Positions 12,432-61,520 of a stretch of DNA of 64,000 bases are shown in pieces. The DNA is from a virus. A program made the position numbers and the translations under genes. Location of the stretch: positions 352,001 to 416,000 of IMG/VR virus record IMGVR_UViG_3300028840_006907; one strand, 5' to 3'. The first letter of the stretch is position 1. Every line of letters starts with the position of its first letter. The notes under the pieces were generated by a model. It ran no database searches and was not told where the DNA came from. It worked only from the letters and a program-made list of their open reading frames with translations.

Positions 12432-12432
12432 T

Positions 12433-12780: not shown

Positions 12781-12800
12781 CTAAAAGGTGGATCTAATCT

Positions 12801-25216: not shown

Positions 25217-26233
25217 ATGAGTTGTGGCGTGGATATAGGAACATGTTTCCTTGTAAGTGCTAGAAATGATGATAATAATCAAATTCAAATAAAGTCTATT
25301 CGGGATGCTTTTCTTGACATGGAGAACAACCCCCAAGTCAAAAACATGATGAAAATGTCAGGTGCAAATTTTATTGAATCTGACGACATTCTTTACATAA
25401 TTGGTGATTCCTCAGTGGTAGTAGCAAACATATTCCAGAAAGAAGCTCGTAGACCATTGAGTCGGGGTGTTATTTCTCCTGGTGAACTTGAAGCTGAGAA
25501 AATTCTGTTGGTTTTGATAAAGGATATATTGGGGAATTGTAAAGTGCAGGATGAAACTTGTTATTATTCGGTTCCTGCCGAGCCCATAGATCATGAAGCT
25601 GATGTGATCTATCACCAAGCTATGTTTAGTAAACTTATTGGTTCATTAGGTTACAAGCCAGTTGCTTTAAATGAGGCAGCAGCAATCATTTATAGCAATT
25701 GTGGAAAGGAAAAATTTTCGGCGATATCTATTTCTTTTGGTGCCGGTTTAACAAATGTTTGTCTTATGTATCAAACGATTATTGGTATGGCTTTTAGTGT
25801 AAATAAAGCTGGAGATAATATTGATGACGGTGCTGCTCAGGCTCTGGGAACTACTTCCAGTAGAATACAGTCAATAAAAGAAAAGGGTATAAATCTTCTT
25901 GATCCTAATGAAGGTGATCCGAAGACTTTCCGGGAACGTGAAGCTATTATCATTTATTATAAAAGTTTGGTTTTATATGTACTTGATAAAATCAAAGAGG
26001 AATTTTTGAAACGTCAAGGTACGATTGAATTACCTAATGCTATTCCGATTGTGCTTTCAGGTGGAACTAGTTTGCCGAAGAATTTTAAAGAGTTTTTTGA
26101 AGCCGGTTTTAATGAAGTAAAGGATAAATTCCCAATTCCGATTTCAGAGATTAGAATGGCAGAACAACCATTAAATGCAGTAGCACAGGGTCTATTAATT
26201 GCCGCTATGAACCATGATGAAGGGTCAAAATAA
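25217..26233 (+). CDS. Actin-fold ATPase (MreB/ParM/Alp-like)
   Basis: Phosphate-1 GVDIGTCFLVSA, phosphate-2-like ISISFGAGLTNVCLM, adenosine motif IVLSGGTSLP; 338 aa; AAGGAGG SD. Confidence 0.6.
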   Translation: MSCGVDIGTCFLVSARNDDNNQIQIKSIRDAFLDMENNPQVKNMMKMSGANFIESDDILYIIGDSSVVVANIFQKEARRPLSRGVISPGELEAEKILLVLIKDILGNCKVQDETCYYSVPAEPIDHEADVIYHQAMFSKLIGSLGYKPVALNEAAAIIYSNCGKEKFSAISISFGAGLTNVCLMYQTIIGMAFSVNKAGDNIDDGAAQALGTTSSRIQSIKEKGINLLDPNEGDPKTFREREAIIIYYKSLVLYVLDKIKEEFLKRQGTIELPNAIPIVLSGGTSLPKNFKEFFEAGFNEVKDKFPIPISEIRMAEQPLNAVAQGLLIAAMNHDEGSK

Positions 26234-27579
26234 TGTATCAACGCTTGATGTATGCAATAAAAAGACGGATTTTGGATGAGAGTGAAGATGCATTCAAAGA
26301 ACATCCTGCTTTTTCTGAAAAAGTAAGAGTTTACAATAAATTTCCCTATGATGAACGGGTTCAATTTGGGATAATTCTCCGAAATGCTTCTTCTTCATTG
26401 ATACGTCTTTCTGCTGATAATTTTATGTCAGATCTTTATTCTCATGTCAAAATAGCTAAACAAGGAACTCATCCTGGAATAGCTATTGAATGGGTGAGAG
26501 AGAATGAAGGAAATATTACTGAATATGTTGAGGAGGATGTTTCTTCTCAGTTAGATCCGACTAGAAGGATATTTACAACGAATTATCCTATTACTGCCGG
26601 ACCAAATAATACTGATTATGCTACTAGTCCGGGACAGGTCAGAGTGACTCTAGATGGTACTAAGGTGATGCCTCAATTTGTTTATGGTGAAGATAGCGAG
26701 GTATGGTTAACACAGGCTCCGAATGCTGGGACGGTTGCGAAGATATGGTATAATCGTCGTGCTATTGTACCACCTAGTATTCATATTGTTGAATTTACTG
26801 AGGATAATCAGTTTATAGTAGGTATGATTTATGTGATTGATAATGAACTTTTGATAGAAGAAACGACTGGGCTTGAGACTACGGTTAATTTGGTTAATAG
26901 TAATGTTGATACTAATTCTGAAGAAATTTGGTTGACCTATAAAAATGGTACAAAAATAGTGGCTTTGGAAAATGGTGTTGATTACAGTATTAATTATGCT
27001 ACTGGATTGATTACTTTTCTTCAACCATTACAAAGCAATTATAGTATTTACGCTGATTATCGTTATCAGCCTCCTGGAAATGTTACAGGTCCTTATGTAT
27101 TTACTGAGTATCAAGAAAATCATGAGGCAATTCCAGGAGTAGTCCTCTCAATTGGTCGTCGGGCTAAGAAGGGTGATAAGCAGGCTGTTATTGTTTCTCA
27201 ATCGAATGAACTGCAGGCTAAAATTTATGGTGGTCATTGGGAAATTTCATTGGATTTAGCGGTGATTGCTAAAGATCCGATGCAGATGGAACAAATGACT
27301 GATCATATTATCTCTTATTTGTGGGGTGAGAGAAAAAATAGGTTGGAGTATGAGGGAATCGCTTTAAATTCAGTAGAGCCTACTGGAGAGACAGAGGAGA
27401 CTCATGTAGAATCAACTGGTGATCTTTATTACGAATCGGGTGTTTCCATAAATCTTCAATCTGAATGGCAGAGATTTGTGCCATATAATCCGATTTATCG
27501 ATTAAGAGATATTAACATGATAGCTGATTTAAGACCAGTCATAAAGGGTCCGATCATCAATTTCGAGAGGTTAACTTGA
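26233..27579 (+). CDS. Hypothetical virion/tail-associated protein (448 aa)
   Basis: Start overlaps the actin-like stop (TAATG); contains a weak copy of the beta-rich module also seen in the sheath (VRVTLDGTKV...VWLTQAPNAGTVAKIWY). Confidence 0.6.
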   Translation: MYQRLMYAIKRRILDESEDAFKEHPAFSEKVRVYNKFPYDERVQFGIILRNASSSLIRLSADNFMSDLYSHVKIAKQGTHPGIAIEWVRENEGNITEYVEEDVSSQLDPTRRIFTTNYPITAGPNNTDYATSPGQVRVTLDGTKVMPQFVYGEDSEVWLTQAPNAGTVAKIWYNRRAIVPPSIHIVEFTEDNQFIVGMIYVIDNELLIEETTGLETTVNLVNSNVDTNSEEIWLTYKNGTKIVALENGVDYSINYATGLITFLQPLQSNYSIYADYRYQPPGNVTGPYVFTEYQENHEAIPGVVLSIGRRAKKGDKQAVIVSQSNELQAKIYGGHWEISLDLAVIAKDPMQMEQMTDHIISYLWGERKNRLEYEGIALNSVEPTGETEETHVESTGDLYYESGVSINLQSEWQRFVPYNPIYRLRDINMIADLRPVIKGPIINFERLT

Positions 27580-28156: not shown

Positions 28157-30958
28157 ATGGGACTTGGCCCTTTTGATTCGTTTTCGTTTCCTGATGTGTA
28201 TACGAAAACATTGAATGAAGCGCCTACCGTAACTGCGTCTGGAGATATCCGCATTCCTGCTTTTATTGGAGTAGCTGATGAAAATGTTCCTGTTAATAAC
28301 TATGAAATGATTCGCGGTTCAAGTGCATTGGCCGATAATAAAATAGTTAGGGAAAATGTTTCCAGTCAGGTAACAGGTAGTAACCGTAATTTTAGAGTCT
28401 CTTACTATCCTATTGTAAAAGGGGATGGTAATGGTACCACTACGACAGATCCAAACGATGTAACGGTTGAGGTTGATGGAGAAGCAGTTGCAGTCTCATC
28501 AGTTGACGGAGAGAATGGTTGGATTTATCTAGTAGGTATCCCACCAACAGGAAGTACAGTGCTTATCACTTATTATTTCAAACGTAATGATACATTACAT
28601 ACATTGGAAGATCTCAGTGATCAGGTTGATGGTACACGTACTGTTTTTCAAACACATTATACTCCGATTGTAACAGGTGATGGTAGTGGTACAACTACAA
28701 CAACTACTTCTCATGTTACAGTTTTAGTAAACAATTCAGCGGTTACTGTTTCTGCAGTGGATGGAGATTCAGGTCAAATTACTCTAGCTTCTGCACCATC
28801 GGTTGGTCAGACAGTGAAAGTAACTTATTATTCTAATGAATGGCAAGATACGGCAGATATCTTACCTTCACCTTATGTTACAGAAGTAACACAGGTAGGT
28901 TATAGCCCAGGTACATCTGATTTTATTGATGAGACAGACTATGTTCTTGATACAACAGGGAATTTTAGTACAATAAACTGGGGCCATTCAGTAAAAGTTA
29001 GTGCCGGTACAACAACAACAGGTGGTGAAGCTTTTGATGATACACAAATCACTACTACTCTGTTTGATAATCGGACATTTCGTAGAGCTATGACAGGTAC
29101 TGTTGATGGTACTAATGCAAATTTTGTGATGGAAGCTACTCCGAAGAGTGGTGAAGGTCGTGGTATTGATACTGATGATCCCGATCTTGTTACAGCTTAT
29201 TATGGTACTAATCCAACAGATGCTACAGTTATAGATGTAATTCAATTAACAGCTTCTTCAAGAACGGCTGTTTTGGCATCTGCTCCTCCAGCAGGAAATA
29301 ATGTCTATATCACTCAATATAGCAATTTACTTCCTGATGATACTTGGACTTTAACTGATAAGACTTCCGGTGCTACAGGTATTGGAGTTTATGATGTTGA
29401 GGGTACTAATGCTGGTACGGCTATGGACGTTCAGTGGTCAACAACTGATACAACAGTTGCTGATCCAGATTTCTCTTCTGAGAATGTGACTTATCCGAAT
29501 GGTACCGGTGCAGGTAACAGTGATGCTCAAGTGTCGCCTGGATTTGCTGTTCAAGAAACGGTATCTTTAACTTTTGCCGATGCTACCACTTATACTGTAA
29601 GTTCAGACCAGACAAGTACTGGTTCTGGTTCAGGTGGCGATAATACAGGATATTTAAATCAAACTTACATTGACAGTGTAACGGGTTTCCGTATTACTGT
29701 TAATGAGGGTACATTAGTTATATATCAGGCGGGTGATAAATTAGGTTATACTGTTAATCCTGATTTTGTCACTTCTACGACACCAACAAGAGCAATACCA
29801 GGTGTTCGTGTAAGAGTATCTAATACTACTGATGTAGTGGTAGGAGATACAGGTTTAGTAAAAACGTATAATTTATCAGGACAAGAACCGAATGTTGGAG
29901 ATTTCTATTATGTCTCTTTTACTGAAGCTGTACAATTTGATTCTGATGGTATTCTCATAGGTGGAGCTAAATTATACAGTCAGGAGAAAAATGTAATAGC
30001 TGATACAGGTCCTTTATCTATAACAAATAATCTTGGAATGGCCGCTCATCTTGCTTTTTTGAACGGTTCAAGTTTAATTGCCTTACTACAGATAGAGAAG
30101 ACATCCGGTGCTGATGATGCCCCTGATTCAAGGTATATTGCGGGTATTGATTATTTCAATGAGCCCATGGAAGGTGGTACAAGACCAGCTCTTATGCAAC
30201 CAGTAACAACTTCATCTGCGGTTATCAATTATTTGAGAACTTCAAATACCATTCAATCTGGTATACGTTATGCGAATGAACGTTTCTCTTATTTTGGTTT
30301 CCCGACAAATACGTTACCAACGAGTGCTCAGACTTTTGCTCGATCAATGAATAATGAGTTGATGGTAGCTGTTTATCCTGATGGTGCTGTGACAACTATC
30401 ACGGATGAATTAGGTAATGAGACTGAATATTTGGTAGATGGAGCTTATATGGCAGCAGCGATTGCTGGAAGAGATACTTCACCTGCTTTCGATGTAGCAG
30501 AACCATTGACAAGAAAACCTATTGTAGGATTCCGTCGTTTATTCCGTAGAATGGATTCGGTAACTGCTGCACAAACGGCAAATGCTGGTATAACTCTTCT
30601 TGAAGAGTTAGCTGCAGGTATTGAGGTTAGATTTGCTTTGACAACTGATATATCATCGGTATTAACGAGAACTCCTTCAGTTATTAGAATAAAGCAATTT
30701 GTTCAGAGAGGGGCTCGTTCGGTATTACAGCCTTATATTGGTTCCAAGCTATTAGTTCAACGTAGAGCAGAAATAGAGCAGACTCTTAAGTCTTATCTAG
30801 CTGCCTTACAGCAAGCTAATATTATTACTGGTTGGACAGGTGTAAAGGCTGAACTGGATCCGAATGATCCGACGATTATTAATGTGGAAGCTTTTTATAG
30901 CCCAGTATTTCCGTTGTTATGGATTGTGATTACTTTTAATCTTCGTTCTAATATATAA
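28157..30958 (+). CDS. Contractile tail sheath protein (933 aa) with inserted tandem beta-rich domains
   Basis: Sheath-like N-terminus (PDVYTKTLNEAPTVTASGDIRIPAFIGVA) and C-terminal region (INYLRTSNTIQSGIRYANER...); gene order sheath-tube-chaperones-TMP; GGAGG SD. Confidence 0.65.
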   Translation: MGLGPFDSFSFPDVYTKTLNEAPTVTASGDIRIPAFIGVADENVPVNNYEMIRGSSALADNKIVRENVSSQVTGSNRNFRVSYYPIVKGDGNGTTTTDPNDVTVEVDGEAVAVSSVDGENGWIYLVGIPPTGSTVLITYYFKRNDTLHTLEDLSDQVDGTRTVFQTHYTPIVTGDGSGTTTTTTSHVTVLVNNSAVTVSAVDGDSGQITLASAPSVGQTVKVTYYSNEWQDTADILPSPYVTEVTQVGYSPGTSDFIDETDYVLDTTGNFSTINWGHSVKVSAGTTTTGGEAFDDTQITTTLFDNRTFRRAMTGTVDGTNANFVMEATPKSGEGRGIDTDDPDLVTAYYGTNPTDATVIDVIQLTASSRTAVLASAPPAGNNVYITQYSNLLPDDTWTLTDKTSGATGIGVYDVEGTNAGTAMDVQWSTTDTTVADPDFSSENVTYPNGTGAGNSDAQVSPGFAVQETVSLTFADATTYTVSSDQTSTGSGSGGDNTGYLNQTYIDSVTGFRITVNEGTLVIYQAGDKLGYTVNPDFVTSTTPTRAIPGVRVRVSNTTDVVVGDTGLVKTYNLSGQEPNVGDFYYVSFTEAVQFDSDGILIGGAKLYSQEKNVIADTGPLSITNNLGMAAHLAFLNGSSLIALLQIEKTSGADDAPDSRYIAGIDYFNEPMEGGTRPALMQPVTTSSAVINYLRTSNTIQSGIRYANERFSYFGFPTNTLPTSAQTFARSMNNELMVAVYPDGAVTTITDELGNETEYLVDGAYMAAAIAGRDTSPAFDVAEPLTRKPIVGFRRLFRRMDSVTAAQTANAGITLLEELAAGIEVRFALTTDISSVLTRTPSVIRIKQFVQRGARSVLQPYIGSKLLVQRRAEIEQTLKSYLAALQQANIITGWTGVKAELDPNDPTIINVEAFYSPVFPLLWIVITFNLRSNI

Positions 30959-44491: not shown

Positions 44492-47400
44492 ATGAGTACT
44501 GATTTAAATACACTGTTATCGTATAATACGATAGATCTTGAATTTTTTGAAATACGTGGATCAAGATCGGGAGTCAATAATGCTCGTACAACAGGTGTTG
44601 TTTATGTAAACGGGCAATATGTTCCAGGAAAGAGTGATGTCACAGGAAGTGGGACTTTTGCTAGTGATGATACTGTTAGTGGATTTTCATTTGGAGCACC
44701 CTATGGTGCTTTAACTACTTCTTCATTAAAAGTGGGAGATAATCTTACTGCTGACTCCACTATTTTTAGAATAGCAAATATCGATTCTTCTACCAGTTTT
44801 CAACTTGAAAGTGCTTCGGGTCTGACAGGGGTTTATCCTATACAATTTGATATGGGTCAAAGAGAATATGTTGTAGAGCCAGATACAATAACAAATACTT
44901 CGACCGGTACAGCTAGCTTTACTTCTGGAGATAAGACTGTAATAAATACAGGTCCTTCTTGGTCAGGGATAATAGCCCCAGGTGATTTTATAAAACATGA
45001 TGGATATCAAGAATATTTTAGAATAGCTGCGGTACCTTCTGGGACATCATTAACATTAGAGAATTCTTATTCAGGTGATACTACGAGTGGTTCCTATACT
45101 GCTAAGAAATGGGTTATAGGTAGAACCAGAATTCAGTATGCTAAAAATGATATAACTTATGATGATCAGGCAGCGAAGTGGAAATATGGGGCTATAGAGG
45201 CTGATGATCTTACTACTTCTACGAATTTTACTCCTCTAGTAGATGGAGTTACATTAAAATTTTCTCGTGCCTTAAATACTAATGATCCAGATTTAATGGA
45301 TGTGGCTGTTACAGAGAATACCATTTTTGCCAGAGAGACTAAATATGAAACGTTTCAGTTTGCTCTTCCTGTAGTTCCTTTTCCTGAATCTTCTATGAAA
45401 CTTTGGATTAATAGTGTCGAACAAACGATGTATCAAGATTATGTATTATCCTATTCTCAGAATCCTTTATATGTTTTACCTCCTCCTCCAAATGAGCGTT
45501 TTGTGGCTAATATAATGTTTTTAACAGAATTATCAAACAGCCCAAGTACAGAATTAACAGCATTAGGAGAGTTCAATATTACTGATTCTTCTGGTAATTC
45601 GATAGGAGGAATATATCCGGGATCTTTTTCATTGACTGTTGATGGTACTACTCAGGTTCCTTATAGAGATTATGTATTGGAAGGGAATTCTGGGACTATC
45701 AATATTATAGATTCAACTGTAAATGAAGAGATAGTAAAATATGTAGGTTCTGATTATAGTGATTATATCGATTATGGTTTTAAAGTTTATTTAAATGGGA
45801 TAGAACAAAAAATTTCTTTTCCTGCTGAAATTGATGATGATATTCTTTTTCAGGTTGCTATAGGAAGGTTAAAACCTCGTGATAAGGACCATCCGGGACC
45901 TGGTGAAATTTATCAAATAAATTATATGGTTGAATCAAATCCTGTTTCTGATGAGCTTATTGTAGGAACTGATGGTGGAACTGTCATTGCTACGAGTTCT
46001 TATCCGATAAAGCAAGATTCTATTTTGTTAATAAAAAATGATACAATTCTTACAGAAGATGAGGATTATTTTGTTAGTTATTTAACTGGTAGAATTTCTC
46101 TTATAGACACTCTTACTTCCCAGGATAATTTTTCTATAAGCTATACTCCTCTTTCAAAACAGGTTAATAATTTATTTTATACAGATAACGCTTGGTATTG
46201 TACAGTAAATGATTCTAGGTTAACAATAGTAGATGCTGATAATTATAGATTTAGTTTAATAAATCTTAGCCTGGATGCTGGTGAGATCCAAATTAATCGC
46301 ATTTATAATGAGACAAGAGATGGGGATTATGATTTAACAAATATCCAGACAGAGGGACCGACTCTTTTATTGGAGAAAAATGCTACTAATACTTCTATAG
46401 GATTAAAATCAACTGATGTTGTACTAATTGATTATACTTTTGAAAGTGAATCAACGGAATATTATCCGGTTGTTGTAAATAATTTAAATATAACTGAAGG
46501 GGTAAAAACTGTTTATATAGAAGGGTCTGACCTGACTTCATTTATAGATGCAAGTTCGATTCTCACTCTTGCTAGACCTGATTCTGCTGTGCAATATTAT
46601 CATACCATTTTAAGTTCTTCTTATGATAATTACGGTACAAGAATAAATATTGAAACACCTATTTTTGAAGATATAATAAACCCAAAAATGTTTATAGGTG
46701 ATAGTGCTCCTACTTATTTAAGTGTTCCTTTAACGGCTGGTCCTATTATAAGTGGTTCTACCAATATTTCTTTTTTTGGTGATAATATTCAAAATATTTT
46801 TCGAAGTAAAACAATTCTTGATGTAAGTAATGATTTATATCAAGTAGCAAGTGCTTCGTATGATAGTGATACTACCACAACCACGGTTAATCTGAGATCA
46901 GGAATATTATATGATCGAACAGACTCTACAGATTTATCAAGTTTAAAATATAGTGATAACCCATATTATCTTGAAGGTGATACAGAGATTTATGCTTCAG
47001 AAACGATAGCGACTTTATCTGATCAACCAGGTTTCATAATGAATTATAATAGTGATCAGATAATAGAAATTACAACTACTGAATCTGATTTGACTGTTGA
47101 TGGAACCTCTTTCTCATATAATACTTATCCGACTTTAAGTGATCTTTCAGGTGCTATGACGGTTATTCCGTCGTTGGCTGTTACTACATATATCCCAGCG
47201 TGGCAGAGTAGTAAAATTGAACTAGTGACTGAATTGTCTGTTTTCAGGGACTCAAGTACTGTATTAAATGTCTCAAATGCTTTAAGATATAAAAGTATTG
47301 ATGCTACTGCTTTTGTTGATACTACGGATTATTCAATAAGTAATAGAGGTACAGTTATTTTAGATAACCCTCTTGTAAGAGGAGATAAATATAATCTTGA

Positions 47401-49834
47401 TTACATGGGTTTGGAATTTCTTGGTAATAAACAAGTCAGTTATACTGCAGGTTATTTTGATTCATTACCTGCAAAATCAGAAGTAAAGGCTTCCTTTCAA
47501 TTTGTTAATTTAGATCAATTTTATATCCAGGTTTTAGATCAGAGAGATTTCTTTAGTTCAGTGACTATTCCTCGAATGAGGGAAGAAGCGATTCAACTTA
47601 GTGGTAGTGTAGGTCAAGGTGGTGAAGTTATTGGTGATGAAGGTAACGATAATGCTTCTGGAGGAATCACTGGTGATGAATATGCTCGACAGGACATGGA
47701 AATAGAATGTCGTGTATTCCAGAATATCTATGATTTTTTCAGTAATCGATTAGAGGCTTATGGCGATGAAATGGAGGCATCTGTAGGTCTGAAATTATTT
47801 AATAATGATGGTATATTTACACAGCAAGAACAGGATGCTGCGAATAAAACTGTCAGTAGAATTTTTCCAGATGTTGATAATACTAATTTTGAACCGATGG
47901 AAGTGAACCCATTAACAGGTTACTTTTTTGACAATGGTGCAAAATTTGTTAATGGTTCAACAACTGTGACTAGTACAGGTAATACTCTTTGGACATTACA
48001 ATTAAATAATTCGGGTTATATTGGTAGCGCAGATTCAACGAAAAGATATCAAATAAATAGTATCACTAATAATGCTGAACTTGAATTGACTACCTCTTAT
48101 GGAGAAAATTCCTCTAATGTTAATGATGGCGAACGCTATACTGCAGTAAATACTGATTACCCAGTTTATGATGATGACGGTTTTGTAGGGGCAAGAATAA
48201 TAGGGACAAGAGCGAGTAATTTTGGTTTAATAAATGGAGACACATTTGAAATATTTCTTGATGGGACGGATTTAACTCATAAGAAGACATATACTTTTTT
48301 AGATACTTTTTTTCCAGTAGCCAATTTAAATGGACCATTGGTAGCAGGATTATTATCAACAATTAATGGTTTAAGTTGTACATACGAGTCGGTTCTTGAT
48401 CCTACTACAACTTATGGTTATCGTTCCACTTTAGTTTTTAGGACAGATTCAACTGTTAATTATATGAAACTTGGTGATACCACTACGACAACTAAATTAG
48501 GATTTGTAAGAGATGATACTGTTTATGGGAATTATGATAGATTAAATTATAGCTCATCTGCTATTTCACTTAATTTAGTCCCTCCTGAAGCAATTTTAGA
48601 TTCGAGTGAAGCGCATGCCATCGGTGAAGAATTAGGTTATCAGAGTTCATTAATTGCTTTAGGAAGTCCTGATAAGTTAAATCGAATAAGTCCAGCAGGT
48701 CTTATTTTTGCAAGTGAGATTTATAATTCTGCCTCATCTCAGGTAGATCTAATTTATCAAGAGATTCCGAAAATAGAAGAACAAATCACTGCTACAGGTC
48801 TTATTATTGCAGAGGAAGATATTCCTTCTGCTGATACTTCCACAGCTCATTTAAATGCAACTTTAATGTTGGCTGATACCAGTGCTGCATTAATCGATGC
48901 TACAGGAATTATTACCGATTGGCAAGGGAAAGGAACCGATTGGGAATGGGTTTCAGATTTTACACAACATAGTGTATTTATTCGTGGTAAAGACAGTACC
49001 AATGTTGGTGTTCCGGTTTCATCCGGACCTGGCATTACAAATATTGATGGTCAGCAATCTTTTATTCTTCAGGCACCTGCTGGATATGATCGAAGAATAT
49101 TGAATAATACAATTTTTTCTGTTACGTATTATCCTGCAATAGTAGATGCTACAAGTAATATCCCTTTTGATGGGACATGGACAGGATGGGGCATTTACGG
49201 TTATAGTAATAACAATGAAATTACATTTACTTTAGATCAACCTAATATGATCTTTCTTAATAACGTTTCAATGGCTGGGACTAATCAGAGATATATTACT
49301 GATAGTACAGCTTTGAATATTTTGTGGGATGTAGGACCAAGTACGACAACAGTAACATTTCCGTATGCAACTTATGCAACGGTCTCTAGTATGAAAATTG
49401 CTTTAAATACTATTTCAGGATTAAGTGCTACTGGACCTGCAATACATGATGCAAGTATTTGTAAAGCATTTTTAATATTGCCTCCTCAATCAATCACTCC
49501 TGATGCCACGGTTTATCCAGGATTGAGAGATGCTACAGTAGCATATCAGACAATTTCTGATATGATGCTTGCAGACAGAACTAATTTTGCCAGTGATCGA
49601 AGTAATTTTCTTGTAAACAGAATAGATTATTTAACAAATACTAGAAATACACAGATAAAAAATGCTATAAAAAATGAACAACTTTTACTCGATAATGGAG
49701 AACCCAGTGATCTTTATAATTGGGCAAATAACAGATTTAATAGGAGACAAGGGTGTTACGCAAAACTCAAACAAATAGAGCAACAAATAGCTTCAAACGA
49801 GTCAGCTCTTCAAATAAACAAGAGTTTCTTTTAA
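44492..49834 (+). CDS. Giant baseplate/fibre structural protein (1780 aa)
   Basis: Long ORF starting 1 nt after the previous stop; beta-rich, S/T/N-rich; no diagnostic motif. Confidence 0.75.
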   Translation: MSTDLNTLLSYNTIDLEFFEIRGSRSGVNNARTTGVVYVNGQYVPGKSDVTGSGTFASDDTVSGFSFGAPYGALTTSSLKVGDNLTADSTIFRIANIDSSTSFQLESASGLTGVYPIQFDMGQREYVVEPDTITNTSTGTASFTSGDKTVINTGPSWSGIIAPGDFIKHDGYQEYFRIAAVPSGTSLTLENSYSGDTTSGSYTAKKWVIGRTRIQYAKNDITYDDQAAKWKYGAIEADDLTTSTNFTPLVDGVTLKFSRALNTNDPDLMDVAVTENTIFARETKYETFQFALPVVPFPESSMKLWINSVEQTMYQDYVLSYSQNPLYVLPPPPNERFVANIMFLTELSNSPSTELTALGEFNITDSSGNSIGGIYPGSFSLTVDGTTQVPYRDYVLEGNSGTINIIDSTVNEEIVKYVGSDYSDYIDYGFKVYLNGIEQKISFPAEIDDDILFQVAIGRLKPRDKDHPGPGEIYQINYMVESNPVSDELIVGTDGGTVIATSSYPIKQDSILLIKNDTILTEDEDYFVSYLTGRISLIDTLTSQDNFSISYTPLSKQVNNLFYTDNAWYCTVNDSRLTIVDADNYRFSLINLSLDAGEIQINRIYNETRDGDYDLTNIQTEGPTLLLEKNATNTSIGLKSTDVVLIDYTFESESTEYYPVVVNNLNITEGVKTVYIEGSDLTSFIDASSILTLARPDSAVQYYHTILSSSYDNYGTRINIETPIFEDIINPKMFIGDSAPTYLSVPLTAGPIISGSTNISFFGDNIQNIFRSKTILDVSNDLYQVASASYDSDTTTTTVNLRSGILYDRTDSTDLSSLKYSDNPYYLEGDTEIYASETIATLSDQPGFIMNYNSDQIIEITTTESDLTVDGTSFSYNTYPTLSDLSGAMTVIPSLAVTTYIPAWQSSKIELVTELSVFRDSSTVLNVSNALRYKSIDATAFVDTTDYSISNRGTVILDNPLVRGDKYNLDYMGLEFLGNKQVSYTAGYFDSLPAKSEVKASFQFVNLDQFYIQVLDQRDFFSSVTIPRMREEAIQLSGSVGQGGEVIGDEGNDNASGGITGDEYARQDMEIECRVFQNIYDFFSNRLEAYGDEMEASVGLKLFNNDGIFTQQEQDAANKTVSRIFPDVDNTNFEPMEVNPLTGYFFDNGAKFVNGSTTVTSTGNTLWTLQLNNSGYIGSADSTKRYQINSITNNAELELTTSYGENSSNVNDGERYTAVNTDYPVYDDDGFVGARIIGTRASNFGLINGDTFEIFLDGTDLTHKKTYTFLDTFFPVANLNGPLVAGLLSTINGLSCTYESVLDPTTTYGYRSTLVFRTDSTVNYMKLGDTTTTTKLGFVRDDTVYGNYDRLNYSSSAISLNLVPPEAILDSSEAHAIGEELGYQSSLIALGSPDKLNRISPAGLIFASEIYNSASSQVDLIYQEIPKIEEQITATGLIIAEEDIPSADTSTAHLNATLMLADTSAALIDATGIITDWQGKGTDWEWVSDFTQHSVFIRGKDSTNVGVPVSSGPGITNIDGQQSFILQAPAGYDRRILNNTIFSVTYYPAIVDATSNIPFDGTWTGWGIYGYSNNNEITFTLDQPNMIFLNNVSMAGTNQRYITDSTALNILWDVGPSTTTVTFPYATYATVSSMKIALNTISGLSATGPAIHDASICKAFLILPPQSITPDATVYPGLRDATVAYQTISDMMLADRTNFASDRSNFLVNRIDYLTNTRNTQIKNAIKNEQLLLDNGEPSDLYNWANNRFNRRQGCYAKLKQIEQQIASNESALQINKSFF

Positions 49835-51853: not shown

Positions 51854-53491
51854 ATGTCGGCTGAAAATCAGATTTTACAAACAACAAAAGAAGATATAAC
51901 TAGAATTGAAGAGTCTCTTTACGGTAATTCCGTAAGAAATATGAGACGAGCTTTAGATAAAATCCGGAAACGACTCGTTATTCTTCAACGTCGTCTTGTT
52001 GAATTAAGGAGTAATGAATCGATTATAAAGTCTCGGATATATAATAATGCTGATGCTCTTTTTATTGATGCTAATTATTCTGCAGGGAAAACTCAAGCCA
52101 CTAATCCACAACAATCTTATACTAGAGTCTATGGTGCCAATGATCCTCATCAGAACTATGCCTATTCGAAATTTAATATGTATACAGTAGGTATTGGTGT
52201 TAAGGAGATGGATTGTGAGTTAAACAGGATAGATAAAGAGATTAAATCTATTCAGGCAGATATTAGAGCTTATGAGGTTTCAGAGCAGAAAATTACAGAT
52301 AGTATTAGATTAGCTGAAGCACAAAAAGAAAAAAATTTGAAAAATACTCTTGGACGGATATTGCCTCCAACTCAGGAAGATTTAGAAAAGGATAAGATAG
52401 CCCGAGCGAGAACGGCAAATATACTATTGCTCTATAAAATAGCTCTTAATTATAGGGATCTGAGTCGGGTTCCTCTTTCTGGTTTTTCTACAGGTTTTTC
52501 GGAGCAAAGGGTTTATCCAGATGAGAGAAAGTTACCTCGACAGTTAAAAATACTTCGTCAGATATTTTGGTCTCATGCAAATGCTCCTGGTTTACAATTT
52601 GATCGTAAAGAAGAATTAACATTTGATGATCCTGCAACTTCAGAAAATTTGAATATATTATATGCTGCTGTCTCTGAAGGTCGGGCTACATCAGCAAATA
52701 GTAAGATTTCTCTTGAAGTAGATGCTTATGTGAAACAGGTAGATACAATTGCTAATGATCCATTGGTTTCAGAAGGTATTGAAAGAAAACCAGATGCAAC
52801 TCTTCCACTTGCTAATTCTTTAAGTGAAAAAACAAAAAGTTATCCTGGAGCTGTATTACGGTTTCAGGATTTTTATTTAGGATCTTTTGAGATACCCACA
52901 TTTGATGAATGTATAAAAAAATGGTGGAAGAAAAGTAATGCTGATTTATATTTTGGTCTTCCCCAATGTCCAAATGTGACTGAACCTTATCCTACAACTG
53001 GTGATGAGAAGACTGATGAATATGAAGCATCAAAATCAGAAGCAGTTATAGCTGGTACTGAAAAGTATAAAGAATCATTAGAAAAAGCAAAAGCTCAAAT
53101 TGATGAAGATATAGCAAATAATGTTGGTGATCTTCCAGCAACTGCCCCTGACTGGGTTAAGACTTATGCAGAATCTTATGGCAGTAGTAGTAGGGGATCA
53201 TTGGATTATGAGGGATCAACTATTATTGTGGGGCGTGCTACTGGTGCTGATGAGGCTACTGCACAGACAAATGCTGATAAATTAATTACTTTTCCAGCAG
53301 ATTCTACAGTAACTAAAAAAGATGAATACTCTTATGTAAGTTTAACAGGTTATCTTGTTACTTATACAAATGGGAGACAATTATTTGTTTATCCTGAAAA
53401 TAAAGAGAACTTTGATAATCAACCAGTTACAACTCCTATAAGGAGTATCGAAGAACAAACTGAATGGATTGTTTATGTTCAATGGGGTTAA
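51854..53491 (+). CDS. Hypothetical structural protein with coiled-coil N-terminus (545 aa)
   Basis: ORF track; start 4 nt after the previous stop. Confidence 0.65.
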   Translation: MSAENQILQTTKEDITRIEESLYGNSVRNMRRALDKIRKRLVILQRRLVELRSNESIIKSRIYNNADALFIDANYSAGKTQATNPQQSYTRVYGANDPHQNYAYSKFNMYTVGIGVKEMDCELNRIDKEIKSIQADIRAYEVSEQKITDSIRLAEAQKEKNLKNTLGRILPPTQEDLEKDKIARARTANILLLYKIALNYRDLSRVPLSGFSTGFSEQRVYPDERKLPRQLKILRQIFWSHANAPGLQFDRKEELTFDDPATSENLNILYAAVSEGRATSANSKISLEVDAYVKQVDTIANDPLVSEGIERKPDATLPLANSLSEKTKSYPGAVLRFQDFYLGSFEIPTFDECIKKWWKKSNADLYFGLPQCPNVTEPYPTTGDEKTDEYEASKSEAVIAGTEKYKESLEKAKAQIDEDIANNVGDLPATAPDWVKTYAESYGSSSRGSLDYEGSTIIVGRATGADEATAQTNADKLITFPADSTVTKKDEYSYVSLTGYLVTYTNGRQLFVYPENKENFDNQPVTTPIRSIEEQTEWIVYVQWG

Positions 53492-54257: not shown

Positions 54258-57200
54258 ATGGCAATACCAGCTCCAGAAATACTTCTTCCTACAGGTGGGA
54301 TGGATTATGCAACAGATATAGCCACACAGACTTTATCTGGTACAACTTCTGCTGATACTCAAGAGATCCAGATAAATGGGTCAGTTCATGGTGTATCATA
54401 TACTGCAGGAGAAACTATTTGGTCCTGGACAGGTACTTTGACTTTAGGTAGTAATGTAATCAATATAATAGCAATTGAGAAAGTCACAAGTTTGCCTAGT
54501 CCTGCTACTACGATTACTATAACATTAATTCCACCTGAAGATGAGGTGATTACGGTTAGTTCTCCTACTGGAGTACAGACATTACGTTATCAAGATAAAA
54601 TCGAAATAAAGAATGTTCAGAATCCTGAACCCAATACAATAGGGTATAATTACTATGTTAGTACACAAAGTGGTGGGATAGATGGAGTTTATGCGAAAAT
54701 CAATACTGATTACATAACTGAATATACTTCATACGAAGATAAAGCAACTCTCATAAATACAGTTACTGATACAACTGGTAATATACGTGTGACAGTTACA
54801 ACTGAACAAATAACCAGAGAATATTATTATTCGGTCTTTTTTGATCAGGAACGTTATACTGAATTAGTAGAAGCTGAACTATTACCAGCAGTATCTTTTA
54901 ATCAGAATACTCCATTCTTTTTTGTTGTTACAGCTATAATATATGATCCAGTTCTTGGACAGGTAACTGAAAGTGCCAATTCGATTGAACTTCAGAGTTC
55001 TCCTGTTACTATTACGACAGGAATAAGAACACTCCCTGCTAGAACTCAGAATGATATTATCCTTACTTTTAGTCAAGATCTTTTATTATCAAATACTGGG
55101 ACTGATACAAAGCCAGGTACAGTGGTAAGAGATATGATGGATCCCATCTCGGAGGAGATGGCTAGAGTTTATGTAATTCAGGATTTTCTCGCTCGATCTC
55201 TATCAGTTAGTTCATTATTGGATTTTGATGATGCTGATGGAGATGGTGAGAGTGATGCAGTAGAGGATTCCATTCCGAAAAAAGCTTTACAACTTGCTCT
55301 TATGCTTACTGATCCTGACGATGTCCAGGCAGTTATTGATGCTCAATTTGATAAACTGGCTTCTAATGCTGATACAACAAGAAGATCTGCAACATATGCA
55401 GTGGGAGAGGTTACATTTTTTGTCACCGAAGCTCCTATAAGGGATATGGTAGTAAATGAGGGTGCTATAGTTTCTACTTTAGGTGATTTGGATAGTGGTA
55501 TCCAGGCACAATCTTATAGAACATTAGCTACAAAGATATTAGATTATGAAACTCGTGAAAGATTTTATAATTCGACAACAGGACGCTATGAGATGAGTCT
55601 TGATGTTGAGGCATTAAATGTAGGTGAAGAAGGGAATACAGATTCTTATACAGTTAAAGTAGTTTCTTCAGGGGCCGATTCAAATTTTCAGGTAGAAAAT
55701 CCTAATCCTATAAGTTTTGGTGAAGATATAGAATCAAATTATAATTTAGCCACTAGGATAATGTTGGCATTTTTTGCTGATACCGGTACTGAGGGAGGTT
55801 ATGCTAAAATAGCTGCCAGTGTCTCTGGTGTAAGAAGAACTCGTATCGAAAAAGCCGGTGATCCACTAATGATCAGAGACTATGATCCTATAAGAGAAAA
55901 ACATGTTGGTGGAAAGGTGGATGTTTATATCCAAGGATCAAGATCGAGACAAGTAACTGATCAGATAGCTTTTTCATTTGAAAGTATAGTATCGAGCCAA
56001 GGGGCTCAATCGGAAGAACAATTCCTTGTGATAAATGCAGTGGCCTTTCAGTTTAAGACCACGAATCCCCGGGTAACATCACATACCCCCATCTTTGAAG
56101 TAAGTCGAGTATATAATGCAACGAGAGCACAGGAATATGATATTTCTGGATACCAAATCATAGGTGATGGTAATACTGTTGATCTTGATGAAACTAAAGC
56201 TCAGAATGCTGCTATAGGTTTAGCTGCTACAGATGTAATAAAAGTCGATTACAAATTTAGGAGTTCGGATACTTTTGTTCTACAGAATCAACCTGTAAAT
56301 GATATTGTCTCTATTGTGGGTCAATTATCTGGTACATTAACTTCTGATAACTGGGATTTAGTTACACTTGAAGATCCTTTGGCAGAAGGCCGGTCTACAA
56401 TAGCACAAGATAGTGTGAGAATAAAATTTGCAAATAATTTACCTCTTACAGGTTTTCAAACAATTACTGATGAGGTTCATGTAATGATTTTGGGTAAAAA
56501 TGAACCTCTTGATTTTTTAGGGGCTGACCCTACTTCTATTGTAGTTAAAAATTTGGCTAAGACTGTTACTTATGTATTAAATGTGGATTACAGAATCGAT
56601 CCTGGTACTGATACTGAGGCTACTGAAATTATTATGATAGAATCAGGTAGTATCAGTAATGGAGAGCAGGTTTTAATAAATTATGTAGCAATTGAAAATT
56701 TTATTATAACTTATACAACGAATGAGTTATTAGAAACTGTTCAAGATGAATTGGATGAATATAAGCATGCCTGTGCTGATGCCATAGCAAAACAGGCCAT
56801 AGAAAATGGTGTTGATTTTGCTTTTACTGTGGTACCGAAATCTAATGTGGTAGATTTTAACACATTGACTTCTCAGATTACAACCTCGATAGCAAATTTT
56901 ATAAGTCAATTGGATATAGGTGTCTCACTTACTCAAAGTGATGTGGATAATCAAATAAGAAAAGTTGATGATGTAGATTATGTTGTCCTTCCGTTTACTC
57001 GTATGGTAAAATCTGATGGCTCTCAGATTGTACGAGATGATATAGGTCAAGTACAATTTGAAGTATATAATGATGGTGTTACAAGATCTTATATAACTTC
57101 AGCAACGGTCCTTTCTTATAATACTATTGATAAGGGTGGTGATGAGAATAAATTTAGAGGAGTATTTGAGAACACAGTTGCACTTATTTTACAGGATGAT

Positions 57201-57431
57201 CCTCTTGATGTTTCGGGAGGTGCAGGACGTGCCTATATCCAGAGTGATGGAAAAATAATCGTAAGTACTATTGATGGTCAGTTACCTGATACGAAAAATT
57301 ATGAAGTAGCATATTATGTGGAAGGGGAAACTGGTTCTGAAGATATTAATGTAGCAGCAGTTGAGTCTTTAAAAATTGGGACTCTAACAATTGCTTATGA
57401 TACACCACGAGAACAACTTCCTTCGTTATAA
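54258..57431 (+). CDS. Large baseplate/fibre structural protein (1057 aa)
   Basis: ORF track; position immediately before the propeller-containing fibre. Confidence 0.7.
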   Translation: MAIPAPEILLPTGGMDYATDIATQTLSGTTSADTQEIQINGSVHGVSYTAGETIWSWTGTLTLGSNVINIIAIEKVTSLPSPATTITITLIPPEDEVITVSSPTGVQTLRYQDKIEIKNVQNPEPNTIGYNYYVSTQSGGIDGVYAKINTDYITEYTSYEDKATLINTVTDTTGNIRVTVTTEQITREYYYSVFFDQERYTELVEAELLPAVSFNQNTPFFFVVTAIIYDPVLGQVTESANSIELQSSPVTITTGIRTLPARTQNDIILTFSQDLLLSNTGTDTKPGTVVRDMMDPISEEMARVYVIQDFLARSLSVSSLLDFDDADGDGESDAVEDSIPKKALQLALMLTDPDDVQAVIDAQFDKLASNADTTRRSATYAVGEVTFFVTEAPIRDMVVNEGAIVSTLGDLDSGIQAQSYRTLATKILDYETRERFYNSTTGRYEMSLDVEALNVGEEGNTDSYTVKVVSSGADSNFQVENPNPISFGEDIESNYNLATRIMLAFFADTGTEGGYAKIAASVSGVRRTRIEKAGDPLMIRDYDPIREKHVGGKVDVYIQGSRSRQVTDQIAFSFESIVSSQGAQSEEQFLVINAVAFQFKTTNPRVTSHTPIFEVSRVYNATRAQEYDISGYQIIGDGNTVDLDETKAQNAAIGLAATDVIKVDYKFRSSDTFVLQNQPVNDIVSIVGQLSGTLTSDNWDLVTLEDPLAEGRSTIAQDSVRIKFANNLPLTGFQTITDEVHVMILGKNEPLDFLGADPTSIVVKNLAKTVTYVLNVDYRIDPGTDTEATEIIMIESGSISNGEQVLINYVAIENFIITYTTNELLETVQDELDEYKHACADAIAKQAIENGVDFAFTVVPKSNVVDFNTLTSQITTSIANFISQLDIGVSLTQSDVDNQIRKVDDVDYVVLPFTRMVKSDGSQIVRDDIGQVQFEVYNDGVTRSYITSATVLSYNTIDKGGDENKFRGVFENTVALILQDDPLDVSGGAGRAYIQSDGKIIVSTIDGQLPDTKNYEVAYYVEGETGSEDINVAAVESLKIGTLTIAYDTPREQLPSL

Positions 57432-57443
57432 GGAGCTTTATGT

Positions 57444-60400
57444 ATGGCTGAGAATTTAGGAACGGGTGTTTCTTTTGTTGATGAGAGTAATGGGTATAAT
57501 TATGATAAAGTTGTTTTCCAAAAACAAAAGCCACCTTTAGATACTGAATTAAATCTTGCTCAAGAGATACAAAATTTACTGGCAAAAAGACATATAAAAG
57601 GAATGCCTTCTGGTTGGTTAAATATAGAGGACTTTTATACAAGTTCATTATTAGAAAACCAATTTTATACCCAAGATCCGGACACAGCTATTCCAGAATA
57701 TGCTGTTGTGAATGGTATGGTTCTTTATGTGACTAACACTGGTACTTCTGAAACAAATTCAAATTTGATCACTCTTACTGATCCTCCTACCTCAGGTAAT
57801 CTTGTTAATGGTGTAATCCTAGAAGTATGGAGAGCTTTATTAGATACAGAAACCGATAATAACAGACCTGATTCAACAGTGGTTATAGATTCGTTAATGG
57901 CTATTGATGCCGTTACTGAAAATAGTGCCTGGACAGTCGGGGAAAATGGGCTTATTCTAGCTACTGAAAATGGTGGTCAAACATGGTCGGTTCAATTAAT
58001 TGATACAAAAAAGAAATTAAATGATGTTCATTTTATAAATACAACAGTAGGTTGGGTAGCCGGTGATAATGGTGCCATAGGTAGAACTTCATCTGGTGGT
58101 GTAACTTGGCTCGTATTACAGAGTGGCTATACTGAGAATTTCAATGGGATTCATGCAGCTACACATCTAATTGCTTGGGTTGCTGGTGATGGTGGTATTA
58201 TTCTTAAAACCGTCAATGGAGTTAACTGGTCGGCTCAAAATAGTAATGTTACAGCAAATCTTAATGATATTTATTTCTATGATAGTTTAGTAGGATGGGC
58301 AGTAGGAGATAATGGTACTATAATAAAAACCACTGATGGTGGATCCAATTGGATAACATTAACAAGTGGTACCACAGAAAATTTAAACGCTGTCTTTTTC
58401 TATGATTTAAATTTTGGTTTTGCTGTTGGTGATAATGGTACAATTTTAAGATCATCTGATGGTGGGCTGTCCTGGGTTGATCAATCTGGTAACATATACA
58501 CTGGTTCTGGTTATACAAGTCTTTCAGTGAATTACACTGATGTCACAATGGCCCCTTCTCTTGATATCCACGTGACCAATGAAGAGGTAACTTCCCAATT
58601 TACAGGTTCAAATAAAAATTGTACTGTAGTGAATGTTCCTATGACTAAAGGTGATGGGTTAGGTACAACAACGAATAGCCCTGCTGATGTCGATGGTGAG
58701 GGTAATTTAAGTACTGTTGTAACTGTAAATGGTACTTCTGTTCTTATAGATAGCATTGATGGAACTACAGGTCAAATTATTCTTAATCAGGCTCCTCAAG
58801 CATGTGATACAGTCCTTGTCTCTTATTGGCATAAAGTCAGCCCTGATATTTTTACGGGTAGGGCATGGATTACAGGGGCATCTGGAACAGTGTTGATGAG
58901 TCCAGACATTGGTGCTAATTGGAATCAACAAACTCCAAATACCAGCTATGATTTAAATGGTGTAAGTTTTGTTGATCAAAATAAGGGATGGGTAGCTGGA
59001 GCATTTTCAGTGATGCGACATACTGAAGATGGTGGTACTACATGGACTACTCAAATCAGTGATACCGTTTCTCGAAGGGTGCAACGGGTTTATAATGAAG
59101 GTAATGTAGATACTGTTATCTTTTTGGATGATGAAATGATCCATCCTGACACAAACATAGAAACGACAAAAAGAGTTCAAATTCAATATAAAATAAGAGT
59201 TATAGAAAATGTTGATCCCTTTTCATATCCGGATGCGGGGCTAGGCTCAGCGGGTATTGTGGCTCTAGGGCCAAATGCTACAGGATCATTTGCTTATCAG
59301 AACATGGGTTCTACGACAGGTGATTATGGTTTATGGCAAGCGAAATGCTCTAATACAGTAGATGGGTACGCATGGGCTATCCCAATGTTTTTTGTCAATA
59401 GAAGAAATAGCACTACTTTTAATGCTGCCAATAATACAAATGGTTCTAATGCTAAAGGTACTTCAAATATCCGACCTGATCTTTTGACCGGTGTTGATGT
59501 TGTAGATCAGGATATTCTTGATGTCAGGAGACAAATATTTATCCCTTCAGTGACTGAATTACTAAATAGTAGTTTTGATGCCCTTATGAATAATCAGTTA
59601 AAAACTCGATTTTTCAGACAAACCACTGGTGGTGATAGTTATTCTGTTGAGCCTTTACAATTGGATTATATCGCGCATGGTTCTGGTACTGAAATTGATG
59701 CTACATTGAGCGAGGCTGTTTCGGGACAAGTCACATCAATTACAACAACGAGTACAATATCTCAAAGTGTTCCTGCATCTACTTCTTTACCTTTTGATGT
59801 GACATTAAGTATTCCAGTAGGAACTCGGGGATTATTTCATCCTAATTCTATTTATTATACAGCTCGTTATGTAAGTAATAGTGCCACATATGATGGGAAA
59901 CCTATTCCGGGAGAATTTACTGGTATAGGTACAAATTCAGTAACGTTTAATTTTAGTGCAAAAGTAAACACTACAAATGAAGACACTAATTTAGTCAGTT
60001 ATGATATTGTGGCTCATTATGTAATATTTAGTCCTAAGTCATTGAGTAAAATTCCTTCTACTCCTCAGCTAGTAGAAAATACAGGAACGGTAAGTGAACC
60101 TTCTTTTTTCTATAGAGGAGTATTTACCAGTGAAACTTCTGGTAGAAAGATTGAAGAATGGGATTCAGGTATTTCAGGATATCCGAGTTATACTCTAGCC
60201 TATCCTGTTATAGAGGCAGGAAGTACTGCACAGGAAGCCCGAGCTTCTTCGATTGAGGTACATTTATATATAAGACTAACTAGTACTGAAATACAAAGTA
60301 TTAATCAGATTAAGATAAGTCAGGAAGTTTATCCTGATGTTGCAGATACGACTTCTTATTATAATCTTTACTGTGTCAGTGAAATAAATAATATCACTTC

Positions 60401-61520
60401 TGGTTTTAGTTTTAAGATAGATGATATTGTAATCACAGATGCCATTTATATTGACAGTGCTTCTGGTTTCCCCTTTATCGAAGGTAATGTCATTGAAATT
60501 GTGGGTATGGCATTGGCAGCTACCGGTAATTCTTATACCAGAAATGGTGCAAGTGTTAATTTTACTCAGGGTGAGAAAAAAATAAGCCCATTTGCTTATT
60601 CATCTCGTTTAAAAATAACTTCATTTCCTCCTGGGTCTATATCAAGTGTTCAGTTTACTAGCCTCGATGCTGATAGTGGTCAAATCTCCACAGCTTCTGG
60701 GGTATTTCTTGGTATAAGTACAACAGAAACTGTGAATAGTTTAACTGATCATTTTGCTTGGGTTGATGTTGGAGCGGGAGATGTTCTTACTCCAGTAACA
60801 GTGACAGGATTTAATACCACGACTTTAACAGTAAATTTCGCTACTCCTATATCACCAACTAGTGTCAAGATACAGGCTTTAATAAAACAGGCTAATTTAA
60901 TTTATGGCACTGATGCTGATGATGGATTACAGATAGCTTATAATTTTATTCCGAGTCAAACTCCTACAAATCTTCCTTCCAGTTTAATAGTAGGGATGGT
61001 TACTAATCCTACAAGTATTTATATATCAAATTTAGGTACTGGAGGCAGTCTTGTAGATAAGGAACCTTATAGTTTCCCTATTGATAGTATCCCTGTAAAT
61101 AATAGCTCTATTATTGATGATAATGAATTTTATAATTTAGATCTATTTAGATTTTCTAATTTCTCAGTAGATAGTGGGTTTGTTCAGATGCCTACTATTG
61201 TTCCTGGTTCTTTTGGGGAAGAGTTAACTTTTTCAAGTTTAACTACTGATGAGTTGTTACGTACTTTTTATAGTACATGTGATACAGAATTTGCCTTCAG
61301 AACAGAAGGTATAAAAATTGGAATACCGAGAAAGATATTTATCGCTACTATAGGAAGAGTAAAAGAGAACTCTACTCAATTATTACGAGGTGAATATGTT
61401 CTTATAATAATTTCCAGAGATAGCCTTACTGATTTAGAAAATTACACAGGTTGTGAAACAGGAAGTGGTAATGTTATCGGGATCTACCGATTACCGAATA
61501 AGCCATTGGTAAGAAAGTAA
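57444..61520 (+). CDS. Tail fibre protein with 7-bladed BNR/Ycf48-like beta-propeller domain (1358 aa)
   Basis: Seven repeats of W-x-x-G-x-x-G-x-I-x-x-T-x-(D/N)-G-G-x-(T/S/N)-W, e.g. AWTVGENGLILATENGGQTWS, GWVAGDNGAIGRTSSGGVTWL, AWVAGDGGIILKTVNGVNWS. Confidence 0.75.
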   Translation: MAENLGTGVSFVDESNGYNYDKVVFQKQKPPLDTELNLAQEIQNLLAKRHIKGMPSGWLNIEDFYTSSLLENQFYTQDPDTAIPEYAVVNGMVLYVTNTGTSETNSNLITLTDPPTSGNLVNGVILEVWRALLDTETDNNRPDSTVVIDSLMAIDAVTENSAWTVGENGLILATENGGQTWSVQLIDTKKKLNDVHFINTTVGWVAGDNGAIGRTSSGGVTWLVLQSGYTENFNGIHAATHLIAWVAGDGGIILKTVNGVNWSAQNSNVTANLNDIYFYDSLVGWAVGDNGTIIKTTDGGSNWITLTSGTTENLNAVFFYDLNFGFAVGDNGTILRSSDGGLSWVDQSGNIYTGSGYTSLSVNYTDVTMAPSLDIHVTNEEVTSQFTGSNKNCTVVNVPMTKGDGLGTTTNSPADVDGEGNLSTVVTVNGTSVLIDSIDGTTGQIILNQAPQACDTVLVSYWHKVSPDIFTGRAWITGASGTVLMSPDIGANWNQQTPNTSYDLNGVSFVDQNKGWVAGAFSVMRHTEDGGTTWTTQISDTVSRRVQRVYNEGNVDTVIFLDDEMIHPDTNIETTKRVQIQYKIRVIENVDPFSYPDAGLGSAGIVALGPNATGSFAYQNMGSTTGDYGLWQAKCSNTVDGYAWAIPMFFVNRRNSTTFNAANNTNGSNAKGTSNIRPDLLTGVDVVDQDILDVRRQIFIPSVTELLNSSFDALMNNQLKTRFFRQTTGGDSYSVEPLQLDYIAHGSGTEIDATLSEAVSGQVTSITTTSTISQSVPASTSLPFDVTLSIPVGTRGLFHPNSIYYTARYVSNSATYDGKPIPGEFTGIGTNSVTFNFSAKVNTTNEDTNLVSYDIVAHYVIFSPKSLSKIPSTPQLVENTGTVSEPSFFYRGVFTSETSGRKIEEWDSGISGYPSYTLAYPVIEAGSTAQEARASSIEVHLYIRLTSTEIQSINQIKISQEVYPDVADTTSYYNLYCVSEINNITSGFSFKIDDIVITDAIYIDSASGFPFIEGNVIEIVGMALAATGNSYTRNGASVNFTQGEKKISPFAYSSRLKITSFPPGSISSVQFTSLDADSGQISTASGVFLGISTTETVNSLTDHFAWVDVGAGDVLTPVTVTGFNTTTLTVNFATPISPTSVKIQALIKQANLIYGTDADDGLQIAYNFIPSQTPTNLPSSLIVGMVTNPTSIYISNLGTGGSLVDKEPYSFPIDSIPVNNSSIIDDNEFYNLDLFRFSNFSVDSGFVQMPTIVPGSFGEELTFSSLTTDELLRTFYSTCDTEFAFRTEGIKIGIPRKIFIATIGRVKENSTQLLRGEYVLIIISRDSLTDLENYTGCETGSGNVIGIYRLPNKPLVRK

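Follow-up and report, generated by a model that had tools for sequence, protein, structure and literature searches.

A Ycf48-like beta-propeller carrying a sheath-type module is inserted in a probable baseplate protein of an uncultured huge phage

The open reading frame (ORF) 57444..61520 (plus strand, 1358 aa) lies in a 64,000-nucleotide window, positions 352,001 to 416,000 of the virus record IMGVR_UViG_3300028840_006907. It contains Asp-box/BNR repeats, which also occur in sialidases and GH74 enzymes. The initial annotation described a seven-bladed BNR/Ycf48-like propeller inside a tail fibre, with a proposed role in binding or cleaving host glycans. Is this protein a fibre, is its propeller an enzyme, and, if neither applies, what would such a fold do in a phage tail?

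Propeller fold and homology

The segment originally marked as the propeller, positions 57880-59050, corresponds to aa 146-536 of the ORF. An Asp-box-like motif (G-x-x-G-x-hydrophobic ... S/T-x-D/N-G-G-x-x-W) occurs seven times in the propeller, at aa 166, 207, 248, 288, 329, 478, and 519. The first five copies are 40 to 41 residues apart; the sixth comes 149 residues later, and the interval to the seventh is again 41 residues. The region belongs to the Pfam family PSII_BNR (PF14870), with a score of 94.9 bits against a gathering cutoff of 27 (E = 7.1e-27). When the PDB was searched with the single sequence, structures of Ycf48/HCF136 (PDB 2XBG, 5OJ5, 5OJP, and 8AM5) were the only solved matches (E = 1e-14). 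Use of a profile of 54 family members improved this match to E = 4e-33. An AlphaFold2 model of aa 1-700, calculated from the family alignment, displayed seven four-stranded sheets forming a seven-bladed beta-propeller. Its mean pLDDT was 86.5, with the blades mostly above 90, whereas the pTM was 0.62 and the orientation of the domains relative to each other is uncertain. Seven repeat copies, the Pfam and PDB matches, and the model are, in combination, far beyond chance. Structure prediction, the check proposed with the initial annotation, thus returned a propeller and no other fold, and the presence of the domain was confirmed by motif register, Pfam, PDB profile match, and model alike.

The same four lines of evidence assign blades 1 to 5 to aa 146-352 (57879..58499). 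A short hairpin and strand A of blade 6 occupy aa 353-373 (58500..58562), as judged from the secondary structure of the model and the blade register. Register and model also place strands B to D of blade 6 at aa 469-503 (58848..58952), and blade 7 with the exit from the propeller at aa 504-545 (58953..59078). All of these segments are encoded on the plus strand.

Sheath-type module nested in blade 6

The model shows the chain leaving blade 6 after strand A (about aa 362-371), forming an extra all-beta segment, and rejoining the blade with strand B (aa 472-478). This places the extra segment in the A-B loop of that blade. Similarity to the tail sheath and the model delimit this all-beta module to aa 374-468 (58563..58847, plus strand). 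Within-window BLAST aligned aa 374-464 with aa 60-142 of the 933-aa product of ORF 28157..30958 (plus strand) at 43% identity (E = 3e-13). The latter protein is the tail sheath, since tblastn matched it to annotated sheaths of Tunturi_5, Bacillus phage G, and mycobacteriophages. The previously noted sheath-type module of ORF 57444..61520 is thus real, but its location is inside the propeller. Canonical propeller topology would place the module and the Asp-box loops on one face and the entry and exit of the chain on the opposite one.

Searches with the module revealed two clear tandem copies in the sheath, at aa 59-145 (28331-28591) and aa 149-227 (28601-28837), and a weak third copy at aa 306-394 (29072-29338; domain E = 0.09). 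A weaker copy was also found at aa 100-173 of ORF 26233..27579 (26530..26751); all copies are on the plus strand. The sheath is unusually long owing to its N-terminal copies of this 85- to 95-aa beta-module, and its C-terminal third alone resembles ordinary sheaths. Its closest cultured relative is that of the 308-kb Tunturiibacter (Acidobacteriota) phage Tunturi_5, with 35% identity over 96% of the query. In Tunturi_5, no homologue of the ORF 57444..61520 product was found.

An exhaustive HMMER search recovered the module in 69 cluster representatives among 1.84 billion, mostly sheaths and other tail proteins. Its carriers include wedge-family proteins, with the module at about aa 360-470, and proteins of about 900 to 1,000 aa with three copies. 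The latter were regarded as sheaths because two of the four scanned have a Phage_sheath_1C C terminus. Further carriers are proteins of about 440 to 500 aa and of about 1,600 to 1,900 aa. The module alone and pieces of the N-terminal domain matched nothing in Pfam at E values of up to 1 to 10. The C-terminal hairpin motif of the module showed a sub-threshold resemblance to parts of DUF2460 and DUF4815 in other proteins. Judged by this distribution, the module is a lineage-restricted tail-surface domain.

The propeller as an insertion in an N-terminal host domain

Conservation in the family is highest at aa 1-145 and 546-700. These stretches belong to the two halves of an N-terminal host domain, aa 1-145 (57444..57878) and aa 546-740 (59079..59663, the lowest entropy of the protein), both on the plus strand. 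Uncultured phage LR745208.1 (485 kb) encodes a protein of 1832 aa that matches profile positions 2-144 with its residues 3-164 and positions 541-660 with its residues 167-300. Only 2 residues separate the halves in this protein, compared with 400 in ORF 57444..61520. Because the halves are nearly contiguous in the relative, the whole propeller is an insertion in the host domain. The protein therefore displays three levels of nesting, with the sheath-type module inside the propeller and the propeller inside the host domain. Another 42 relatives also lack the propeller, and Pfam domains were absent from all of them. No Baseplate_J call was present near the locus of one of the propeller-less relatives (P0157).

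The model and the family alignment also define a conserved helix in the N-terminal domain, at aa 33-51 (57540-57596, plus strand), in which N37 and Q40 are invariant in the family. It could be the wedge helix that joins a core bundle with two J subunits. After excision of the propeller, the N-terminal domain had no Pfam match at E values of up to 10. The idea that this domain corresponds to Pfam DUF4815 was not confirmed.

Gene context

ORF 57444..61520 lies directly 3' of the gene for a 1057-aa Baseplate_J (gp6-like) protein (54258..57431, plus strand; Pfam PF04865, E = 1.5e-18). In contractile-tailed phages, or myophages, the gp6/J-like protein is partnered by a wedge subunit, gp7/gpI, and gp7 is likewise placed after gp6 in T4 and cyanophage S-CAM9. 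The ORF thus occupies the position of a wedge subunit. A block encoding proteins of 619, 545, and 240 aa, the J protein, and the ORF 57444..61520 product reappears in homologous form in a 589-kb contig, where the last protein is 50% identical, and in a 278-kb contig, where it is about 30% identical.

The family profile matched T4 gp7 at E = 0.22 only, and when it was compared with T4 gp6, gp7, gp8, and gp10 and S-CAM9 gp6, gp7, and gp8, the S-CAM9 propeller was the sole match. Neither sequence nor fold comparison detected homology to T4 gp7, to P2 gpI-type Pfam families, or to any solved baseplate protein. The wedge assignment, to a position like that of T4 gp7, P2 gpI, Mu gp48, or TssG, is therefore inferred from gene order and one predicted helix. 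PHROGs searches with the whole protein, the propeller-excised N-terminal domain, the C-terminal 818 aa, and the LR745208.1 relative returned nothing usable. Megablast of positions 50000-62000 against GenBank phages gave no match, and database searches revealed no cultured phage with a homologue of the ORF. On gene context, the best reading of ORF 57444..61520 is a baseplate-region structural protein of an uncultured huge myophage. A scan for promoters and terminators around the ORF yielded fewer sites than were present in shuffles. An antisense ORF at 57346..57648 was dismissed as spurious, given that conservation of the plus-strand ORF starts at its very first residue.

Several observations concern the neighboring genes. 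The 545-aa ORF 51854..53491 (plus strand) had no Pfam match in the window, and its homologue in the 589-kb contig (34% identity) has an SLT lytic transglycosylase domain; it is probably a tail-associated cell wall hydrolase of the baseplate block. The 1780-aa ORF 44492..49834 and the Baseplate_J ORF 54258..57431 (both on the plus strand) have a module of about 85 aa in common (aa 573-655 and 585-672, respectively; 32% identity, E of about 2e-7), and this pairing is also present in relatives. In the 278-kb contig with the approximately 30% identical homologue (L008 14418..24416; JGI 3300028920), the gene at the wedge position precedes genes for several small proteins with PKD domains and for a Laminin_G_3 protein. 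Unlike that contig, the window has a 124-aa ORF and then a strand switch after ORF 57444..61520.

Fibre identity

No fibre or tailspike family or fold was matched by ORF 57444..61520. A monomer model of aa 541-1358, the C-terminal 818 aa, was compact and confident (pTM 0.85), which would argue against an intertwined trimeric fibre. With a gp7/gpI-like gene position, a compact C-terminal body, and no fibre match, the proposed identity as a tail fibre could not be demonstrated.

Three other ORFs of the window, 4009..6234, 10383..12431, and 12801..20126 (plus strand; 741, 682, and 2441 aa), have a unit of about 360 aa in common. It contains a Laminin_G_3/ConA-like lectin domain and is tandemly duplicated in ORF 4009..6234. 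These lectin-unit ORFs within 4009..20126 are likelier fibre or adhesin candidates than ORF 57444..61520.

Comparison with sialidases and GH74 enzymes

Sialidases have six blades, an Arg triad, a Tyr/Glu nucleophile pair, and an acid/base Asp, whereas GH74 xyloglucanases form their catalytic cleft from two tandem seven-bladed propellers. Both groups (GH33/34/83 and GH74, respectively) carry Asp-box/BNR-type repeats on a beta-propeller, as does ORF 57444..61520. The likeness does not extend to the architecture: the ORF has seven blades rather than six, and it combines a single propeller with the N-terminal domain and beta-sandwich domains rather than a second propeller.

The search for catalytic residues that had been proposed with the initial annotation found no conserved sialidase Arg triad with Asp/Glu across 54 homologues. 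The invariant propeller residues in this set were Gly and Trp only, and no Arg was conserved at 70% or more in aa 146-543. Among Asp and Tyr residues of the blades, D280, Y320, D339, and D503 alone were conserved at 78% or more. The best-conserved acidic residues, Asp339 and Asp503, lie in an Asp-box and an inter-blade linker, respectively, and no set of Asp, Glu, and Tyr fitted a catalytic site. The family profile matched no glycosidase in the PDB at E values of up to 10, and there was no sialidase-family match in Pfam at E values of up to 0.01. A glycan-cleaving domain is thus disfavored by the seven blades, the lack of a conserved Arg, and the PDB result; as far as sequence conservation can tell, the propeller is most likely non-catalytic.

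Family size and conservation

Homologues of ORF 57444..61520 are numerous, with 1,107 full-length matches on contigs of up to 589 kb. PF14870 was present in 120/120 homologues among the matches listed, and the automatic JGI name of the homologues is "photosystem II stability/assembly factor-like." Each of the 53 homologues sampled, with identities as low as about 31%, retains both the propeller and the nested module in the same order, that is, five blades (203 to 216 aa), the module (76 to 101 aa), and blades 6 and 7. Two family members of 1,440 to 1,469 aa (P0027 and P0042) have about 100 extra residues around blades 6 and 7 (177 to 181 aa compared with 77), possibly representing a second nested insertion.

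Positional entropy was 1.1 to 1.3 bits in the N-terminal domain, 1.4 to 2.0 bits in the propeller, and 1.9 to 2.5 bits in aa 741-1190 (59664..61013). The latter region, rich in beta-sandwich domains, is the most variable part of the protein, and conservation across the family rises again in the C-terminal region, aa 1191-1358 (61014..61520); both are on the plus strand. With its intermediate entropy and its absence from some relatives, the propeller can be considered a constrained accessory domain. The primary determinant of host specificity is usually the most variable part of a protein. Being better conserved than aa 741-1190, the propeller is therefore not an obvious determinant of host range.

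Comparison with known propellers

The propeller has its seven blades, degenerate Asp-box motifs, and sequence homology in common with Ycf48/HCF136 and, like them, appears to be non-enzymatic. Ycf48 is a scaffold without enzymatic activity that binds the D1 protein via a groove and a charged patch (PMC11449106; PMC8038367), with the contact made through a conserved arginine-rich patch (PMC11449106). Whereas Ycf48 stands alone as a lumenal (lipo)protein of about 330 aa, the phage propeller is the internal segment aa 146-545 of a 1358-aa protein and contains a 95-aa domain in blade 6 that is not found in Ycf48. A precedent for inter-blade insertion is a stretch of 19 aa between blades of chloroplast HCF136 (PMC11449106). 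The phage protein scored 95.5 bits against the NCBIfam Ycf48 equivalog NF010237, far below the cutoff of 326. No counterpart of the Arg patch was found in aa 146-543 of the 54 homologues, a comparison made by conservation across the family rather than position by position against the Ycf48 structure.

Closer in setting are the gp7 homologues of cyanomyoviruses (S-CAM9 YP_009322507 and S-SSM7 E3SL21), whose genes likewise directly follow a gp6/J-like gene. The S-CAM9 gene that comes after gp25 and gp6 encodes a homologous BNR propeller; in other records, the gene at this position is called "baseplate wedge initiator." The cyanomyovirus propeller is about 34% identical to that of ORF 57444..61520 over about 160 aa. 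It is located near the C terminus of the S-CAM9 protein (aa 3352-3698 of 3884), in contrast to the position within the N-terminal domain described here. S-CAM9 gp7 shows no homology outside the propeller and is devoid of the nested sheath-type module. The two propellers were probably acquired independently.

Propellers are known from other adhesive settings. The receptor-binding protein (RBP) of phages 80alpha and phi11 has a five-bladed peripheral propeller, proposed as a non-catalytic carbohydrate-binding platform for the GlcNAc of wall teichoic acid (PMC7048315). A propeller platform at the baseplate periphery is the likeness we propose for ORF 57444..61520. The staphylococcal protein differs in having five blades with no BNR relationship and in being a trimeric siphophage RBP with a coiled-coil stem, and no homology to it was detected. 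PSII_BNR domains also form the tips of fibrillar adhesins predicted in bacteria (cluster 9), where they are candidate adhesive domains outside photosynthesis (PMC9210967). These belong to the same Pfam family but are proteins of the bacterial cell surface and not of a phage baseplate. Similar predicted propellers are present in many phage tail and baseplate proteins of BFVD. A literature search retrieved no paper on a Ycf48-type or BNR propeller in a phage baseplate or fibre protein, nor on the nested architecture.

Proposed function and alternatives

We favor, with a probability of roughly 0.55, a structural baseplate protein in which the N-terminal domain serves as an anchor and the propeller as a platform for binding a host polymer. 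The conserved N-terminal domain (aa 1-145 and 546-740) would probably anchor the protein in the baseplate. A surface loop of this domain would carry the 400-aa excursion, namely, the rigid Ycf48-homologous propeller, and the propeller in turn would present the small beta-module that also decorates the tail sheath and a sheath-adjacent protein. Acting as a non-enzymatic binding platform at the baseplate periphery, the propeller may help the tail attach to a host-envelope polymer. We infer both its outward orientation and its ligand; carbohydrate binding is possible, and no ligand-binding residues could be identified in the propeller. Adhesion to a host polymer is favored because of the staphylococcal phage RBP platforms, the PSII_BNR adhesin tips, and the BFVD phage propellers. 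A more speculative extension, which we consider improbable, regards the 95-aa module as a lineage-specific "tail-coat" adhesion unit shown along the whole tail. The Ycf48-like propeller would then have been recruited as a rigid baseplate scaffold displaying the module, and the nested device would be a sensor of host contact.

That the propeller is better conserved than aa 741-1190 is no less compatible with a conserved partner, which might be another protein of the virion. The propeller might accordingly be a protein-protein docking hub that attaches the phage's own virion components to the baseplate, a reading we hold to be clearly less probable than polymer binding but worth serious consideration. 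Its partners would be, for example, the Laminin_G_3/ConA-like proteins encoded within 4009..20126 or the PKD and Laminin_G_3 proteins encoded downstream in relatives. The conservation pattern is as expected for a constant virion partner, other parts of the window and the downstream region of a relative contain candidate adhesin or fibre genes, and Ycf48 itself is a protein-binding scaffold (PMC11449106; PMC8038367). However, the Arg patch of Ycf48 is not conserved in the propeller, no partner was identified, and, since propeller-less relatives exist, baseplate assembly itself does not require the propeller.

A tail fibre with a receptor-destroying, sialidase-like or GH74-like propeller would be in keeping with the known occurrence of Asp-box/BNR repeats in these enzymes and with one BFVD structural neighbor annotated as a beta-1,4-xyloglucan hydrolase. 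We consider it very unlikely in view of the single seven-bladed propeller, the missing conserved Arg and fitting Asp/Glu/Tyr set, the absence of glycosidase matches in Pfam and PDB and of fibre-family matches, and the compact C-terminal body. Still less credible, to the point of being negligible, is a functional copy of Ycf48, that is, an auxiliary metabolic gene with which the phage would act on photosystem II assembly in cyanobacteria. Ycf48/HCF136 proteins do provide the best sequence matches, and the JGI name points the same way. Nevertheless, the score falls far short of the equivalog cutoff and the Arg patch is absent. Moreover, the domain sits inside a 1358-aa protein encoded among tail genes and lacks the context of a signal peptide or lipobox, and PSII_BNR is widespread outside photosynthesis (PMC9210967).

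Under the preferred reading of a baseplate protein, more than 1,000 huge-phage homologues would be better called baseplate-region structural proteins with an inserted propeller. The nesting also provides defined domain boundaries for expression of the propeller and binding tests. The general view of phage adsorption is unchanged, as propellers, including those of the BNR type, are already common in phage tail proteins.

Other features of the window

The 338-aa ORF 25217..26233 (plus strand) matched Pfam Volactin (PF25216) over its full length (E = 1.2e-63), with weak similarity to MreB/FtsA. Volactin is an actin homologue and a determinant of cell shape in the archaeon Haloferax volcanii (PMC10869688). 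In this huge phage, the Volactin-type ORF sits between thyX and the tail genes. The segment 6001..10000 differs in composition from the remainder of the window, with a G+C content of 0.40 to 0.44 compared with about 0.35 elsewhere and a GC skew of about 0.3 compared with about 0.15. It coincides largely with ORF 6401..10318 (1305 aa), for which no Pfam match was obtained.
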